A stretch of 64,000 nucleotides of DNA from contig CM074520.1 of assembly GCA_037379345.1 (NCBI GenBank), positions 21,989,488 to 22,053,487 of the forward strand. The letters run 5' to 3'. The translations under genes were made by a program, and so were the position numbers. The number at the start of each line of letters is the position of its first letter. The first letter of the stretch is position 1. Shown piece after piece: positions 2,097-62,282 of this stretch. The notes below the pieces were generated by a model. It saw only the letters and a list, made by a program, of their open reading frames with translations, made no database searches and was not told the DNA's origin. Source of the DNA: Perna viridis (taxonomy: Eukaryota).

Positions 2097-5000
2097 TCAG
2101 TGAAGTTTTTTCAGAGCATCGACTTCCTGAAAGTTTTGGACACACCACTGTCTTGATTTATCATCACCAAACGAAAATGTGAACATACTGTTTATAGGTA
2201 TTTTTGAATAATTATAATGAAATGAATAATAGTCATAAAATAGTAAATATTATTGTATAGCAATACAAGGCAACCTCAGCGTGCATTAAATTTCCATATA
2301 GCACTAGTGCAAATATACTTAAGCTAAAATTTGTGACATTATCCGTGACAAAAGTCCATTTTAATCAAGACTAAATTATATTGCCATACAATAAAATGTA
2401 TATTGCATGAATACTGGGGAATATTATCCCTCGTAGAATGTATGTTGCATTCGTTAACTCGTGCAATATAAAATTCTATTCGAGACAATATTACCCAGCT
2501 CAGTATTCATGCAATAACTCTATAATATTACTATTTATGAAAATTTCATTTCACAAAAAAATGAAAAATATGATAGCCTTTCACTAACAAAAATATAAAG
2601 TTCACAGTTTTAATTTCCCTATTTAACAAAGGTGTATTCCTAACTTTACAGAAAGTTATACAAAATTTGACACGATATCACCAGGCCATATTCAATATTA
2701 AGATAAAGTTTTGGTTTAAAGTTTTATCATAAAGTTTCAAAAATAGATTGTATATAAGTGTCCGTCTAAGAACTACAACCCTATGCAGAACAATTATAAT
2801 TAGTATTGATATAAAAATGTTAACTAATTGGTTCAATACTGTGGTCGCTTTGAATCAAATTGCCTTATCACAAACACTTTACGGGTTTTAGAGAAGTAGT
2901 AACCGATTTTATCGTGTCAAATTAGAGTGTGCAGATTTCTCACCTATTCCAAATGATTGACGAAGCCCAATCGAATTCCTAGAACAGCATTAAAACTGTA
3001 TTGCAATAGTAATCCATCATTAGGATTCCGTTTGTGACAAGACAATTCGAAATTAAACCCGTAAAAGGTAGACATTCCTGCATAAATTGGTACCGAGTCA
3101 TCCTTAAAAGTTTGTTTTTGAAATAAAACACTCTATGAAAAGTTCCATAAAAATGTCGGACTAAATGTGTACAATGGATGATAAGTTACGCTTCATATGA
3201 AACTTATCCCACATTTTACAGCAAACTAAGGACTATTGACAATAATCAAGGAAATGTTTTAGGGATGAAAATGGTATTCAAATAAGGACTTATTTATCTT
3301 TAGAAACTTTAATCTAAAGAGATGTTTGTATACATATATGTTTATATGCAACCCGAATTTCCCTACCTCGTCACTATCCGTATTTCCCTTTTTGTCTCCT
3401 CTACTTGACCTTGACTTTGATGCTGATCCATCCTTGTGTTTGAACCAAGAATCTGGTACTGGTTCAGGTGAACCTCCCTAGTTAAATGAAAGTTATATTG
3501 GAATGGAGTTCAAGAGGTACAAACCACAGAAGGAGTACCTTTTTAACCACTACTAAGATTTAGTTAGTCGTCTTTGTAAGAATAATGCAAATTCTGTAGT
3601 ATGAGATACAACTCAAAAAAGGCCAGTCATTTTTAATTTTTGTTATTAACTTAATTTATAGGTCTATATTATTCATTCCAAACTGTCTGCTCTTTGGAGA
3701 TACTCCATATTGAAAATCCAACAGTTTCTATTGTATTTTGTGTCATTTACAGAATTATCTCCCTAAATTTTGAATTCTACATATAATTTTTATCCCCTAA
3801 GAACAAATGTTATATGAAAAGCCACATGTTAATTTCTGTTTCCTATAATATTTTAAACAAAATATCCAAAATAAAATATGTAGGCTTTCCTACAATAAAT
3901 CATATTTTGCACGATTCTTAGCTGGAGCACTACTTAAACACGATGTAACGCACCAGAAATAAAAATCATGTAACTGAAATGACATTAGGGTAGGAGATAA
4001 ACTGATACCCCGACACAGGAAGAACTGGTTTTAAAATTATATACATGTATCTATGAAAGCTATAGATTTGACATGATAGTGTATACATTAATTGTATGTA
4101 TTTTGAGAACCCGTCATATTCCTTGTAGTATCCCCTAATACATGAAAAATACATTGGCTTTGCATTGTTCAACTTGAACACTGACAAAATGTACAATATA
4201 ATTTAAGAGCAAGGTAAAAAAAAGCAGTCATTGATATCTACATACTCTCTTTTTCTCCAACGGATGTCGCAATTTTGGCAACTTTTTCTTTCTCTTTGAC
4301 GTTCCTAAATCTCTGTTAGTAACACGGTAAATTTTCTCTCTAAGCATACTTTCATTTTTCTTGAGATTTGTTTTACTGGTATTGATAATTTTTGTTTCAT
4401 CTGGAATGAGTTGTTCGACACTGTTCTTGTCTTCTGTTTCTTTTTGATCAACTTCCGGTGTTTCTATGTTTGGTAATGACGTAGAGTCATTGGTTCTACT
4501 GGTTTCTGGTACTTCCTGAATCGGCGGTGTTGATGTATAATCTTCATCTATGATTAATGGATCAACTTGTTTCTTTTTCTAAAATAGTAAATTTGTTTTC
4601 ATGACTTATTCAGTTTCTTATGTTTTGTCAAGCTGTTTCCTGCATAAAAAATACATGTCTTTATTTACTGGATATACTATATAATTAAGAACGTGTCTTA
4701 CTAGTTAAAATTATACTCTCTTACTAGTTCGCAATGTCAAACTGTGACTAAGAGCTATTTAAAAAGAAAACATGAAATTGCAGCTTAGTCACAAAACAAC
4801 CTTGATTTTACTATGAAAAATATGACCAAATATGAAAAAAGCGAATAGACGGACTGTCGAACTGGCATTATTTATCACAAATTGATGATTTTCTCATTAC
4901 AGAATTGTTATAATTCTTACATGTATGAGTTGAACACAACTGTTACAGGACAGCTTCGATACATACATGTACTATCAAATGAACTTCTTAATTTATTCAC

Positions 5001-8000
5001 AAATTTTACAAAACAAACGCGTATTGCTCCATCATGCAAATACAGTACATTTGAGCCACAGCTTGAAATTATAATAATTAAAACAAATTCCAGTTAAAGA
5101 AAGATCCCGTTTTGGAATATTGTTAATATTGTATACAACACACTTACTGAAAAAAAAATCAAATGAGTGACTGATATTGGCTGTCTTGTTTTTCTATCTT
5201 TTCATCAATGATAAAGAACTGTATTGGTCCTGGCAGATTAAAGTAATTTGAAATTTTTAATTTGGTAAGCAATTGTCAAGATTGCAAACCAGTTAAAACG
5301 CTAATTTACGTCCGAGTTTAAAATTAGTTTTTCTTACCGAACATCCAAATAAAATGAAAAGGTCCATATCTTTTCATTATAAATGTGCACTTGTTACTAT
5401 GAAAATATACGTGATCTCGAATCTTGAAGTAAGTCTTTGGTAACGTTTATGGGAAGGACGGATGATGACATAACTTTTGAAGTCACGTGACTTAATTATT
5501 CAGATTAATATCGATGAAAAATAATTCGGATTATACTCCTGGTAAACCATACTCTTAAATTTGTTATTGGACTTGTAGTAATAGTATGACATTCCAATGC
5601 ACTGAACCATTAAATGATGCTAGATGTATATATTCTTTCATCTTATTATGCCAGCCTACCAGTTTGTTTTCTGTTCTTTCTTTTATGAATACTTATTGTA
5701 GATTAATCATACACAATATACTTGTAGGTACATGTATGTTCGTATTTTATTAGTTTGTTTTTTGTTTCTTTTTGGATTTCCAAAATGTATTCTCTTGGCT
5801 GCTATTTTTTTTTAAAGTAAACAAATTAGAGGAGCTACTGTCCTTACTTTCTTTAAAAAAAGAATACCTGCTTTACGTTACCTACATGTATATAACAAGG
5901 GTGTTTCGTAGTATATGCGGTATTTTTGTTTGTTTGACTACCATATCAGCACACACATTTGCCAGCATTTCATTAATTTCAGATTTCGGTATGTTGCTCG
6001 GTCTTCCGAATGTGAACCCGGATTGTTGATTCAATCCTCATCCCATCAAAGACTTTAAAATTAGCAGTCACTGATTGGCCGCCATGCAGTATTTAGGGGA
6101 TAAAGTGACACTTGGTGGGGCCGGGATTAGAATGAAGTATCTGAGTGGAATGGCAATGCCTACCTGTGGATTGTAGCTAATTTGAGCTGGTCCAGTCAAA
6201 ATCCGGCTCAGCGTGTCGGACTAGTACTAGAATGGTAAAATGTTCCCGCCCTAAAATTCATGAAATATCTTCCAAAGGACGTCATTTGTCTCTCTGTTTT
6301 TTTTGGGGGGTCTCCTTCTATAAACATTTCTCGTGGGCGATAGATATTTTTGACTTAAGAGTTTTGAGTTCTTAGTATTAAACATTTAAACAATGAATGA
6401 TGGGAGAATTACAATGGAGCTTTAAAATAAGCTTTAATATGATTAAAACTGCACTAAGAACAACTTTTACTCTACATTTTTAAGACGTTTTACCTTAATT
6501 ACAGGTTCTTTTTAAATAATTGTTTAATATGATGCATTATTACAGTTTAAAAATAACTGGGTTGAATAAATCCAAGCATTTGTGTATTTCGTGAAATAAA
6601 CATTAAGTTAAAAGAGATTTTCATATTTGATTGGTACAGAAATTAAACATATCTACACATCGATTAATTTCGAAAGGTTTGTTATTTAGCATTGTAATGA
6701 AAATACATCGAGAAATGCGAAACGAATTATACAATGAACAGTCAAAACCTCTCTTACAATTTGAAATTTCCTAGTACGCACAATATACACCATAAAAAGT
6801 AATTACTACGCTTCTAAACGAGATGGATAACAAGCAAGACTATGAAGTTAAAGGGTCTAATGTCACATTTCTATTTCTCGTTTAGAGCCCCGTGCGGGCC
6901 CGGGTGTCAAAAAAATAGTCACGCAGCAGTACTAAGCTTGTCGTAAGAGGCGACTTACATTTTGTAATAGTGCTCAGAACCCTGGCTGGGGACCCCCGGC
7001 ATGCTTCATGCTGGGGTCGTCAGCCCATAATACGGAAAACCTGACTGCAAACCATAGTGGTGAAACGTATTGGGAAGGATGCCACGTTCATCGCACGCAA
7101 AAAACCCGTCTGTAGTATTCTCTTGGAGTAGGAACCATTGGGCTCCGCCACAGGAGGTTAAATTGCCCGACCTTACCCCCCTCTCCCTATTTCCAATGGC
7201 AATCAAAATTTGTCGACCCCATTATCCTTGTGTCCCATCCCATTTTTCATTTCATGTTCATTTTATCACCCATCTCACGTTCATGTTCGCCTGAATACAG
7301 CTATAATATTGCTTCTCGGGCGTTAAATCCCAACAATCAATCAATCAATATCTTTCAGAGATCAGAATTGACAGCAGACTGCCATTCTATGGATTATAGC
7401 TTAGCTGCTTCCATGGTAAATAGTTCTATTCACATTCACGAGTTCAATTTATCGAAGTATAGATTATTTTTCAATTTTTCAAACGAGAAATGCAAGGAGG
7501 TACAACGTAATTATTCCATGTTCATGTTACTTACGATATGATCAAGATTTAATTAAAATTTTCTCATTCGATATTAGTTTACACAGTACATAGATGCTTT
7601 GACTTAAAGTAGATATTTACTCTTATCAATGAGACAAGATGTTCCAAATTCAAAAAGACCGCCTATATATCGGTCAAAAAACGACAAAATCATCGAGATA
7701 GTTAGAGAACCAAGTAAGTATGATGTTTAACGATCAAAACACAATGTGTTCGTTTTACATAAGGTTCACTATTTGTTAGCGATTATATTTAGTAAGTAGA
7801 GTGATAGCGTAAAAGCGTTTCAAAACATACCCGGAAGGACCTGGACTTAGGACGAATCTTCAAAACGTTTATCCTAGTTCCGAATACTAACTTTTCATCA
7901 GTATTACCATAGCAGTCCTAGAAAAAAGAATAAGGGTGGTTTCTATGGTAACGGTAAAATGCTGAATGAAACCAGACGAATAAGAAACTAATGAAAATTT

Positions 8001-19598: not shown

Positions 19599-20567
19599 CT
19601 AACAAGACTTTTTACTCCCAGTCTTTTGACGAAATTTGTCACTAGCAAGAACATATATACTACATAAACTGACTACAAACAGTAAAACTGTAGATACACC
19701 AAGTTTTGACGAGTTCTGATCAACATAGGAAACGTTGCCTTGTTCAATTTCATAATGAACCGCATTAATTTGAAGAGTCTGTGTAATTGTCGCTATTACG
19801 TGGAACATTTGATGGCTCTGTCCAATAATGTCAAAAGATCCGGGAAATAAAAGTTCTGGCACGTGGCATGCGTACGCCAGTGCTTCTAGGGTGAAGGTCA
19901 AATAGATCCAGTTATAACGCCAGAGTGACGTAGTGTTGGTAACATCGCCGTGAACGTACCGCCAGTATTTTCCAGCAACTGTCGATGAAATGAGGACCCC
20001 ATGTAACGCATATACAAAAATAACAGTCCATTTCCGAGGTAGGTGCCCAGATGTCTCACCAAGATTTAGTTTAAGAACACACATAGTTATAAATTCCACC
20101 AGACAAAAAATCCAGTGGATTACAAAATAAAATGGTGCAATTACTTTATAGGTAGTTTTATCTGAAAAATATTGAATTGCTATTAGACCAGTTACGTAGC
20201 AATACATGATTACTCCGGTATAGTCTAACAGAAACAATATTCGATGAACATACGCGCTTTTAGTATGAAAAATATGAGCAATCACGCTGAAAGATGTTGA
20301 TAACAAACAGCAAAAAGAGAAGATGAGAACAGTTCCACATTGGATATCAGTATATGAATTACAAGTGGGGGCATAATGATATAATAGTAGGAAATGCCAC
20401 ACAAATGCGAAAATATGTGTCCAGATATTAAGAGATTCGTTGTGCATTCGAAAAATGCTGACTAGATAAAAGTTCCATTTTTGGCCAATTTTTCGGTATC
20501 CTGAGAGTACTCCTGGTTCGCGTAAAGAATATGGAACATCTGAATAATTCATAGTAATCTTTCCCAT
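19599..20567 (-). CDS. PAQR family (HlyIII) membrane progestin receptor-like 7TM protein, intronless CDS, ~322 aa
   Basis: PAQR motifs intact: GYR..HNESLNIWTH, SVIAH, LDYTG, PELLFPGSFDIIGQSHQMFH. First ATG at 20565-20567 (the track start is a GTG). Strong acceptor ttttcttttctttgcag just upstream of 20642 implies an upstream UTR exon. Exact paralogue (PAQR5-9) not assignable. Confidence 0.93.
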   Translation of the reverse strand: MGKITMNYSDVPYSLREPGVLSGYRKIGQKWNFYLVSIFRMHNESLNIWTHIFAFVWHFLLLYHYAPTCNSYTDIQCGTVLIFSFCCLLSTSFSVIAHIFHTKSAYVHRILFLLDYTGVIMYCYVTGLIAIQYFSDKTTYKVIAPFYFVIHWIFCLVEFITMCVLKLNLGETSGHLPRKWTVIFVYALHGVLISSTVAGKYWRYVHGDVTNTTSLWRYNWIYLTFTLEALAYACHVPELLFPGSFDIIGQSHQMFHVIATITQTLQINAVHYEIEQGNVSYVDQNSSKLGVSTVLLFVVSLCSIYVLASDKFRQKTGSKKSC

Positions 20568-20976
20568 CTTTTCCACGTCTCTGTCTACTGATCACAGCTA
20601 ACAGAGCAAAGATTCGTCCTGTTTGTTCAAAGAGAGCAGCTCCTGCAAAGAAAAGAAAACTGTTGTCTTAAAATCTCAGATAACACAACAAATAGAAAAT
20701 CTCTGCCGTCTGGTTTTCTTGTAAGCTTTGTCATCAATTCATTTCTAATAAGTTAAGAAGATACCGTATTCGAAGATTGTATACTTTCAAACAACACTAC
20801 AAAGGATGCTAATTACTGTTATGTGGTGAAAACCAGGCGCAATAGGTGGCGAAATACGAAACTGTAAACAACTGGCGACACATTGTTCAACTATTAAAAT
20901 ACAAGTCCAGAAAAAAGTCAACCAAATAAATAAAGGAGCTGGGCATTCCACTATTTCAAGTGTTTAATCCATTGTT

Positions 20977-21490
20977 TGTTTGTTTGTTTGTTTGTTGGGG
21001 TTGAACGTCCGAGCAGCAATATTTCAGCTATATTCAGACAATGAACATGAAATGGATGATGTAATGAACATGAAATGAAAAAAAAAAGGATGGGTCACAA
21101 GAATAATAGGGTCGACAAATTTTGATTGCCACAGGAAAAAGGGGGGATGGGTAAGATCGGGCAATTTAGCCTCCTGTGGCGGAGCGCAAAGGTTCTTACT
21201 TCTATCGAATACCCCAGCAGGGTTCTTTAACGTGCGAGGAACGTGGCATCTTTCCCAACACGGTGCATCACTATGGTTTGCGGTCAGGTTTTCCGTATTA
21301 TAGCCTGACAACCCCAGCATGTAATACGCCAGGGGTACCCCATTCCACCACCTGGGGCACACATCCAAGTTGCTCTGTGGGCAGAGCGCCTAGCCCCCGG
21401 CTAGGGTTCTGAGCACTATTTAGTCGCCTTATACGACAAGCTTAGCGCTGCTGCAGGCCTATTCCTTTATCACCCGGACCTGCACGGGGG
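20977..21490 (-). mobile_element. SINE-like family B, full-length copy 2, (CAAA)n tail
   Basis: 9-bp TSD tccattgtt at 20968-20976 and 21491-21499. Confidence 0.92.
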
Positions 21491-37598: not shown

Positions 37599-40022
37599 AG
37601 GGGAAATATAAAATGTGGCTTTCTAAGGTTTAAAATGAAAATTTGTGCTGCGTCTAATGAAATGACCTTGAAAGAGACATGCTAATGTCAGTTATCTTTA
37701 GTCCTATTTTGTAATCTTAAGTATATATAAAAATGTATAAGTACATTCTGCATCTTAACAACCCTAGCCACGTAGCAATCTAGCAATGGGTAAATAAAAA
37801 AATGTCAAGGCTACGAATGATATTAAACTTATAGATTTATGTGTGAAGTTAACTATATTATATGTTAAAAAGAAAGACAAAGGTCATTGTACTGTAATTT
37901 TAAGCGTATAGAAACCTTGCAGGAATCCTGGATTGAAGACAAAGAGCCACTACAGCATACTCTCGTCATGTGACTAAGAAACACGGATTCCCCCTCACTC
38001 GGGGTTGCCGAACAGAACTGAAAGTCTCCGATATGGCATAAATTATCACGCTATTGGATCAGCATACCATATTTGAAATAATTTTCACCGATTGTTTAAA
38101 TTTTCATCTGACAAAAGTTTATACAACGTATTTTACGACACTACATGAACATTCAGACAGTCACTTGATCTGAGGTAGATATGCGACCAAGCCGTAAATC
38201 TCCGATACGGTATAACTTGCGTACCAAATTTCAACTTCTTCTAGTGAATTGATTCCAAGTTTTCGCTGACGTAAATTTATGGAACGTGAATTGACGAAAA
38301 GCAGTAAAATTTTAATCGTAAAGTTAAGTAACTATCAATAATATTTGATTGCAATAAGCGAACCAGACTAGAAAAAACATGAATCTACTTTGAGTAAATA
38401 TAATTTAGGTACAGCGCACAGATCCAATATATGCAATTCCTGTGTACATCTGTTACATAGATGCTAAGACATGCAAAATGCGTCAATACTAGGACAATAT
38501 CCAAGTACATGGACTTCAGTGAAAACAGAAAACAGACGATATTAATTCACAATAAACAAACAGAAGAAAATATACAATTACATATAGAAAAAACTGAAGA
38601 TAAGGAAAACAAGGCACCAGACAAAAAATTAAAGCACTAACAATGCGAACTCACACAAAACAAAAAACAAAACAAAACAAAAACAAACAAAACATGAGTG
38701 ACATCAAGTACACTGGGAATTTAAGCATATTCTGCTCCGTCAGCCACATCCGTCATATTGCGAGTTTGTAAAATTCGGTAAGAGTCTAGCTACAATAATG
38801 TAGCTCCTCCGACTTATTCTGTAACAAAGAGGTCCCACAAATAACAATGGAGCAACTCCATGTGTGGTTCACACATAGGCAATACCAATTTGCAAAGTAT
38901 CATGATGTATACAATAAAAAAAATCGCATAAATAAAACATTACTAATAAGCATGAATGCAGAGCCACCACATGCTTTACAATTGTTAGGAGATCAAGAGC
39001 TACACATGGTTATAACATGAATCAAGCTTTTCATGATTGGCATATGTTCAATTAGCAATGTTTTGATTATTTTAATGGGAGAATAATTTTTCCCTTATTG
39101 GTGATTATCATGTGTTACTCTACGTCTTCATCCAAAAGAAAGCTGTTTTATCAATTCTTTCACCTTTTCGTGAAGTGTATAAAATGCAGTATACACTACG
39201 TGTAGTAAAAATAAAAGCAGCGTTTTGCTGACTTCAAAATATAGCTAAATATAACTCTTCAAGCCCAGAAAGTGGTACTTATGTTACTTTTTATCTAACT
39301 CCAAAACGAAGCTTGTATACCAATTTTTCATCTTCTTATGGACTATAATAACGGCAATAAAGACTTCATACAAGTGTGGTTCGGTTACATTTTAAAGGTT
39401 CGGACTTTTAAAGACCTGAAAATGTTGCGAATGTTAAGTATTGTCTACATCCAAATGAAGCCAATATATTTATTTGTTCATGTTTTAATTGAACTGTACT
39501 AACAGCAATAAAGATTGTATGTAAAAAATCCCATATGGATACCAGCCTGGTGCACCAAAATTCTTCATGGACTAGACAGGCCCTTTTTGGTCTACATATA
39601 TAATATAATAGTTCTGTAAACACATCTAACAAGATGTGTAAAATGTTACCATTTGATGGATTAGACACAGACGCTCAGAACAGTAATTTTAAAAATCATT
39701 GACCGAAAATCTATTTCATATATTTTCTTCAGAATTCTAAACACCTATGGATGAAAACCACTCCTCCATATTGTTTTTTTAGCCACCATTCACTCAAAAC
39801 TTATGTTCTTTTAAAAAAAGCAATAAAATGATATTTCGAAATATGATATTTCAAATAAACAGAATAAAGTACACAATGAAAGCATATTCTATAAATCAAT
39901 TTTTATTGACAACCATCTGTTTTAGGAATATTCAATATAAAGCAGATTTTCATGCAATTTTTTTTTCCACATTTCATACATAGTAATGATGATTTAGGTC
40001 ATTAAAGTGATTCTTATTTTAT

Positions 40023-40425
40023 TTAAGTAGCATTCCAGCTAAGAATCATGCAAAATGTGATACATGGTTGGAAAGCCTACATATTTTTATTTTTGATATT
40101 TTGTTTAAAATGCTTCAGTAAACAGAAATTAACACTTGGTTTTTTGTATAACCCATGCTCATACGAGATAAAAATTGTATAGAATGCACTGTAGAATTCA
40201 AAATTAAGGGAGATAACTCTGTAAATGACACTCAAATATAATAGAATATATTGAATTTTTAATGTTGATTATCTCTTAAGAGCAGGCAGATTTGAATGAA
40301 TAATTACACATTTCATAATATAGACCCATAAAACAACTTAATTACAAAATAAAAATATGCAGCCTTTTTTTAGGTATATCACATTTTTCAGATTTTGCAT
40401 GATTCTTACAAAGACAGCTACTAAA
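40023..40425 (+). mobile_element. TTAA-flanked family A copy 2 (DDX41 3' region)
   Basis: ttaagtagcattccagctaagaatcatgcaa ... ttgcatgattcttacaaagacagctactaa. Confidence 0.88.
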
Positions 40426-40867
40426 AAGAATAAAGTTACTATCATTCAAAATTGAATACACATTAATACCAGTAAAACCTGTATCTTTAGTATCAAATGT
40501 TTCCATATCATTTAAATGGATATGTTACTAAACAACTGAGAAAATAATGAACTGGTAGCTTGTGTATGATAGTTATATCATTTTTTATCAGTCTACATGG
40601 TCCCTGCCATATTACAGTTTGCCTGTTCAGTCTATGAAATTTACACTTAGTAGGAGGAACTGAACTTCATTTTAATTTGAATGTTTAAGTAACACTTCCA
40701 GTAGCAAAGAAGTTCCTATCTACTAATATTCTGAGCCTGTTCAGTAAACAAAAAGATTAGACAAGTCTCATTAATCAGCACTGCCTCTGGCCCAGGAGTC
40801 AAAAAGTCCAATAGTACGAGTCAACTAGTTACATATGTAAGTAACAGAAATAAGCTGACAATGAGCC

Positions 40868-62282
<21,415 letters not shown>

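Follow-up and report, generated by a model that had tools for sequence, protein, structure and literature searches.

HDV-like ribozymes free the R2 and L1Tc retroelements from read-through transcripts, and the flavivirus and LT classes of exoribonuclease-resistant RNAs (xrRNAs) contain pseudoknots. Roles in processing as well as in exonuclease resistance have been attributed to the HDV folds of R2 (PMC12222951, in the sections consulted). According to the consulted part of PMC10520033, known Xrn1-resistant RNAs lie in 3′ UTRs, near stop codons and in repeats, and Xrn1 halts one nucleotide before their first hairpin. A head of ~70 bp is common to Nimb-17_LMi, I-3_DR, RTE-9_CPB and the mollusc "LP" SINEs (Matetovici et al. 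2016, PMC4758252). In the consulted text and supplement of that paper, LP stands for "LINE promoter" and the LINEs said to bear the head are Nimb elements and a single RTE; the body of Sgl_LP is in part Nin-DC, and the scallop MESC SINEs are also of LP type. A promoter role is proposed there for the LP head, which is likened to the ingi/L1Tc 77-mer, with the statement that experiments are needed.

An LP-type SINE family in Perna viridis

We analyzed a stretch of 64,000 nucleotides of the P. viridis genome (the window), which holds five copies of one SINE family:

20977..21490, minus strand: full-length LP-type SINE copy of ~515 bp, with head, body, Nimb-like tail and (CAAA)n
21499-21491 and 20976-20968: TSD of this 21.4-kb copy, AACAATGGA, 9 bp
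21489..21490, minus strand: 2-nt leader before the first stem, the 5′ end of the SINE according to the TSD survey below
21220..21235, minus strand: Nin-DC-like motif gcacgttaaagaaccc in the SINE body, its first 12 nt being the motif of Lottia_Nin and Lsa_Nin in the consulted supplement of PMC4758252
33689..34204, plus strand: second full-length copy, with a 14-bp TSD, TTGTATATAATGTA
6887..7349, plus strand: older copy with an internal deletion, head intact, without a clear TSD
28166..28690, minus strand: older copy without the start of the first stem (P1)
61642..61704, plus strand: 5′-truncated, tail-only copy with a 13-bp TSD

The original prediction described TSD-defined full-length copies that begin exactly at a 5′ head without A/B boxes. 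Our results showed that this description holds for the 21.4-kb (9 bp) and 33.7-kb (14 bp) copies only, since no TSD of at least 7 bp flanks the 6.9-kb copy and the first stem of the 28.6-kb copy is missing its start. Within their first 200 nt, the four copies indeed have neither an A box nor a B box, and no tRNA gene was found in the window. The family thus lacks the combination of tRNA-like head and A/B boxes that marks tRNA-headed SINEs. The Deu/Nin-like motif predicted in the body is present at 21235-21220, and the likeness of the body to Nin-DC consists in this 12-nt identity (motif comparison only).

From sequence comparison, the head is the published LP head and the SINE a further LP-SINE. 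The scallop SINEs in the consulted supplement of PMC4758252 bear the same head (CCCCCTGCAGG...AAGAATT...CGTAAGAGGCGACTAA, matched by eye), and we also found it at the 5′ end of a two-ORF LINE, L283. With the LP-SINEs of that paper, as far as consulted, our family also shares variable TSDs and a 3′ tail of short tandem repeats and, judging from the 12-nt motif, possibly a partial Nin-DC body as in Sgl_LP. In the same sections, the LP head appears as a presumed promoter, without a structure or viral copies, whereas here it is a covarying double pseudoknot, occurs in the 3′ UTRs of RNA viruses and has apparently been swapped for an HDV-like head. The sequence proposed as novel was therefore already in print, and what is new is the fold and the viral copies. 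An exact match to an already characterized motif, which was to have counted against the prediction, exists in part as the published LP head, and Rfam has none. Our literature search, with subscription papers, Repbase and figures outside it, returned no published description of the double-pseudoknot fold or of viral copies, and a literature text search with the head motif strings in DNA and RNA letters gave no match. In the consulted supplement of PMC4758252, the Snail domain family includes a snail SINE, Pan_3, that likewise shows the half of the head with the hairpin and UAA.

We counted 6,317 exact occurrences of a 27-mer of the head in the 723-Mb genome (0 for the reversed control), which puts the family at no fewer than 6,317 copies. 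To define the 5′ end, we surveyed 152 distinct heads, 110 of which had a tail in range; a TSD of 9–18 bp was present in 76 of these 110. The leader between TSD and P1 measured 2 nt in 51 of the 76 copies, 1 nt in 10, where it overlaps with the last base of the TSD, and 3 nt in 4, with 11 scattered. In total, 61/76 copies begin 1–2 nt ahead of the first stem, in a survey that leans to young copies because loci were chosen by similarity to the head. The 2-nt leader is fixed whatever the flank, and is C-initial in one subfamily (CC in 18/24 copies). The tails are (CAAA)n or (CAAT)n. Contigs of four presumed RNA runs cover the SINE and are uninformative on transcript ends or strand.

The genome also contains a head-to-tail SINE array with a period of 504 bp (G000:C1:9834484-9839015, L034-L037) and an array of ~3-kb units (G000:C15:5527000-5573000), in which the SINE head of each unit stops right after UAAA. 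Some elements begin with a duplicated head (L091:1371-1519, L320 and L050), among them a metagenome repeat and P. viridis copies. Within the window, an intronless 330-codon frame at 19599-20591 (minus strand) encodes a domain of PAQR-type membrane proteins, HlyIII. The 21.4-kb SINE is ~390 bp upstream of this frame on the same strand, and its head may fall within the transcript of that gene. A second interspersed family of ~400 bp has five copies (3551-3938, 40004-40427, 42132-42520, 42995-43430 and 49004-49412). Palindromic, MITE-like stretches lie at 52830-52955, 30185-30463 and 2401-2516, the first of which gives a weak, chance-level Rfam miRNA match.

Fold and covariation of the head

Judged from its pattern of base changes, the SINE head is a conserved double-pseudoknot RNA module that makes up the first ~80 bases of the element. 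In the 21.4-kb copy, its parts are:

21473..21488, minus strand: P1 hairpin CCCG/CGGG with loop U + GCAGGUC; 87.5% of cells paired, double-sided change in 2/4 pairs, one C-G pair invariant in 18/18
21460..21464, minus strand: linker with the conserved motif (A)GAAUA; all 18 aligned rows have AGAAU, and this copy has G in place of the first A
21453..21459, minus strand: P2, first pseudoknot strand GGCCUGC, whose partner is the P1 loop; double-sided change in 7/7 pairs, 87.3% paired
21439..21452, minus strand: P3, 3-bp helix of AGC (21452-21450) with GCU (21441-21439), enclosing the 5′ strand of P5; 90.7% paired
21420..21438, minus strand: invariant U, P4 hairpin GUCG-UAUAAGG-CGAC and UAA
21412..21418, minus strand: 3′ strand of P5, UAGUGCU, pairing with AGCGCUA (21449-21443) as the second pseudoknot; variable in sequence and length

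The CCCG/CGGG stem, the 7-bp AGCGCUA/UAGUGCU stem, the GUCG/CGAC hairpin and the UAA had all been predicted and are found at 21412-21490 on the minus strand, as is the pseudoknot between the P1 loop, UGCAGGUC, and the complementary downstream GGCCUGCA. The earlier model was correct in these helices and incomplete in that it missed P3. In P3, the 3 nt that follow the P2 strand pair with the GCU that opens the GCUU segment, which turns the 7-bp stem (P5) into a second pseudoknot. The P4 hairpin stands as described, but its loop, given as UAAGAGG, reads UAUAAGG in the 21.4-kb copy; UAAGAGG belongs to the 6.9-kb copy. The family majority is UAAAAGG, and the linker of the 21.4-kb copy is GGAAUA. 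The A-U to G-C compensatory change reported for the 6.9-kb copy is present there and in 6/187 ungapped heads of the P. viridis genome, a recurrence that may reflect a single event because the copies are related.

Single-sequence folding of the 21.4-kb copy performed no better than chance (z -0.30), so that support for the fold comes from covariation. A search keyed on the 18-nt P4 hairpin alone returned at least 120 metagenome loci and 5 viral contigs; among the metagenome matches listed, nearly all are repeats of many families with eukaryote-like flanks. We aligned 18 representatives, one per family or virus among the matches listed, leaving out near-duplicates and two loci (L111 and L133) which afterwards scored >50 bits. 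Since the P4 hairpin was the search key, its own invariance is partly circular. All 5 viral matches of the key bear the whole upstream fold, which lies outside its constraint.

Covariation across subfamilies, which the original prediction had named as a check, is strong in these 18 diverse copies by shuffle statistics. Pairing reached 90.7% of cells compared to 70.9 ± 1.7% in shuffles, and 64 cells had a double-sided change compared to 22.5 ± 4.0; the shuffles ignore relatedness among rows, a concern that the spread over viruses and unrelated repeats limits but does not remove. Sliding the partners out of register lowered pairing to 32–45%. The count of pairs with a double change is less clear (11 vs 8.9, with 37/500 shuffles as high). 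For P3, 52/60 pairs form in 20 representatives compared to 36.0 ± 3.1 in swaps (0/5000 as high), with variants AGC/GCU, CGU/GCG, UCC/GGA, CUC/GAG, GCC/GGC and others, the 3′ side being GNN before the invariant U. The summed helix length of P5 is 86, compared to 67.8 ± 4.2 in swaps (0/2000 as high), and P5 is weak (2 bp) in 2/18 rows.

Rfam gave no match to the head at E≤1 for the window or at E≤5 for four viral loci, so that it matches no twister, pistol or hatchet model there, and its topology appears to differ from these classes. A fold other than canonical HDV had been predicted, and indeed none of the 18 heads fits an HDV-like descriptor of our own (nested P1-P2-P3-L3-P1.1-P4, C in J4/2) at the 5′ end, while 2/18 fit it loosely at inner starts. 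As described in the consulted parts of PMC5786205 and PMC12222951, the HDV-like ribozymes of R2, RTE and ingi/L1Tc resemble the head in forming a small double pseudoknot at the 5′ extremity of non-LTR elements across unrelated LINE clades, and in a hairpin followed by CUAA. They differ in helix order: the head is without the P3/L3/P1.1 arrangement, and it also occurs in viral 3′ UTRs.

LINE and viral carriers of the module

LINE L283 carries the head at its 5′ end, followed by a gag-like ORF1 and an ORF2 with APE, RT and RNase H, as in an autonomous I-group element. It comes from the assembly of a bivalve symbiont, where it presumably represents host DNA. These data do not support an origin from Vingi/RUDI, as originally suggested: L283, the only LINE in which we found the head, is a two-ORF element encoding APE, RT and RNase H, and PMC4758252, in the sections consulted, puts the head on Nimb and one RTE. 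Vingi has a single ORF and no RNase H, unlike L283 (compared by ORF layout only).

Using the L283 endonuclease as query, we identified a young two-ORF LINE family in the P. viridis genome (L265-L282, e.g. C9:2999650-3005730). It is I-group and Nimb-like, its copies are ~98–99% identical, and the 1247-codon ORF2 frame is intact in many of them; its tail is only loosely like the SINE tail. In 12 full-length copies inspected, this LINE starts with a different head, which fits our HDV-type descriptor, as do 9/1000 shuffles. Rfam gives no match for this LINE head, so that the HDV-like call rests on our own descriptor. Some 155 nt further downstream, a short stretch resembles the 5′ half of the LP head (score 26; 4/1000 shuffles as high). 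After this putative remnant comes a counterpart of the UTR segment that in L283 sits immediately behind the head (score 60 vs 22.8 ± 3.5, maximum 38 of 300). The P. viridis LINE thus probably retains a decayed LP-head remnant downstream of its HDV-like head. We infer that the HDV-like head was gained and the LP head decayed, an order of events drawn from two elements only, and the apparent swap suggests that both heads do the same job. Among the 113 P. viridis loci fetched as exact hairpin matches, a search that may miss diverged carriers, no autonomous LINE had the LP head.

The module is also present in the 3′ region of six distinct RNA viruses (7 contigs, one junction being seen in two separate assemblies, L069/L072). 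It lies 6, 11, 24, 74, 101 or 123 nt behind the last ORF, thus in 6/6 viruses, and its last copy is 14–119 nt from the contig end; none is ahead of an ORF. Tandem copies occur in 2/6. The proteins of these viruses include RdRP_3, RdRP_4, Peptidase_A21 and noda- and S-domain capsids; L068 has no Pfam match and is RdRp-like by motif only. By their proteins, the carriers belong to different, unrelated groups. Because pairing is conserved in RNA-virus genomes without a DNA stage, the module must function at the RNA level. On a 212-kb DNA-virus contig, a copy lies between two genes, ~150 nt before a large ORF, and may be an inserted host fragment.

Five looser viral patterns yielded mostly chance matches inside phage genes: 22 loci with 8 carrying the motif (1 new), 8 loci with 7 known, 8 loci with 3 chance matches, and no new contig for the other two. 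No annotated phage matched the head. Six matches were obtained among 185,579 prokaryotic genomes, and a bacterial home was rejected: L198 is without the upstream fold, and the remaining matches (L200:1-560, L202, L199, L201 and L203) are surrounded by eukaryote-like DNA or sit at the end of a contig next to CA repeats. These five repeats resemble those of eukaryotes and probably entered the prokaryotic assemblies as host DNA or chimeric contig ends.

Candidate functions of the head

We propose, with about even confidence, that the LP-type head blocks 5′-to-3′ exoribonucleases (Xrn1/Xrn2) and would thereby fix the 5′ end of read-through transcripts. The SINE would be transcribed from flanking host promoters, Xrn1 or Xrn2 would degrade the host read-through RNA and arrest at P1, and the trimmed RNA would start at the first base of the element and stay protected there. 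A Nimb-like LINE protein could then copy the trimmed RNA via its tail. In viruses, the block would leave a protected 3′-UTR decay product, like flavivirus sfRNA. The same function has to make sense at the 5′ terminus of a retroelement and at the point where a viral 3′ UTR begins. Of the functions considered, an exonuclease block suits these two settings best; the original prediction, which offered self-cleavage and an internal promoter, had left it out of account. The head is kept by many non-coding repeat families (among the matches listed) as well as by a coding LINE.

The viral 3′-UTR position, the tandem copies and the fixed 2-nt leader match known Xrn1-resistant RNAs, as far as these are described in the consulted part of PMC10520033, and so support the exonuclease block. 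Like the viral xrRNAs of that source (flavivirus, xrRNA-LT and coremin xrRNA-C), the module is compact, repeated, shared by unrelated virus groups and close behind a stop codon: it lies at the start of the 3′ UTR in all six RNA viruses, in tandem in two. It differs from them in topology and in being carried by cellular retroelements too, and it matches none in sequence, in Rfam models or in the coremin consensus as given in the sections consulted. Coremin xrRNA has a YGAD/YGNNAD first hairpin and a spacer, where the head has a 7-nt loop, UAARAGG, on a distal hairpin. The missing Rfam family match and coremin loop consensus speak against the exonuclease block, as does the lack of a LINE with the head in its own genome (113 loci).

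The exact 5′ end of the SINE copies is equally predicted by self-cleavage or an internal promoter and in this respect also counts against an exonuclease block. A new class of self-cleaving ribozyme, cutting ~2 nt before P1 and freeing the element from read-through transcripts, is the main rival, though we consider it rather unlikely. The fold is a compact double pseudoknot, and its many unpaired invariant positions (AGAAU, loop AGG, UAA) would suit a catalytic or protein-binding site. The apparent swap for an HDV-like head in a related LINE, with its modest remnant match, fits a ribozyme at least as well. The consulted text of PMC4758252 draws the ingi/L1Tc analogy, and linear RNA viruses carry active self-cleaving ribozymes (PMC13725137). 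In the part of that source consulted, however, these are located for the most part ahead of ORFs or in 5′ UTRs and only as exceptions in 3′ UTRs, whereas a cut at the head would detach the 3′ end of all six RNA viruses from the coding part of the genome. Moreover, the bases around the presumed cut vary freely and the head does not fit the HDV descriptor. A Twister-like cut at UAA was rejected, as it would remove the 5′ half that the copies retain.

A translation element appears improbable. The head would then be a cap-independent enhancer or ribosome-binding fold in the viral 3′ UTR and the LINE 5′ UTR, kept by SINEs to reach ribosomes making the LINE protein. 3′ CITEs are typical of tombus-like viruses, in which the head has a 3′-UTR position, and its invariant loop bases, its place 5′ of ORF1 in L283 and the DNA-virus copy ~150 nt before a large ORF agree with such a role. 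However, the head is intact in many non-coding families, and translation alone does not explain copies that start exactly at it. An internal DNA promoter, as proposed in the consulted text of PMC4758252, would agree with the 5′-terminal position of the head on LINEs and SINEs. With an incidental RNA fold, it is highly improbable, given that four helices show compensatory changes and that RNA viruses, whose genomes pass through no DNA stage, conserve the head. In the elements, the head may have an additional promoter role beside its RNA role. The L1Tc 77-mer combines promoter and ribozyme activities.

Returning to the exonuclease block together with the ribozyme, we consider it rather probable that the head represents a new double-pseudoknot RNA class of one kind or the other, a module moving among animal retrotransposons (Nimb, RTE and SINEs), several groups of unrelated RNA viruses and a large DNA virus, and that the SINE is promoter-free, harvesting host transcripts via RNA decay. 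Either main outcome, a host-encoded new xrRNA class or a new ribozyme class, would be notable; if the exonuclease block is true, cellular mobile elements would for the first time have an exonuclease-blocking RNA class of their own, with thousands of copies per genome. A ten-year-old untested "promoter" is recast as a structured RNA, whose function is within reach of two cheap assays on an 80-nt RNA. The head could also supply a small 5′-stabilizing RNA for RNA-templated gene insertion. For the elements themselves, the module would offer SINEs a propagation route without Pol III and would reveal module exchange between retroelements and viruses.
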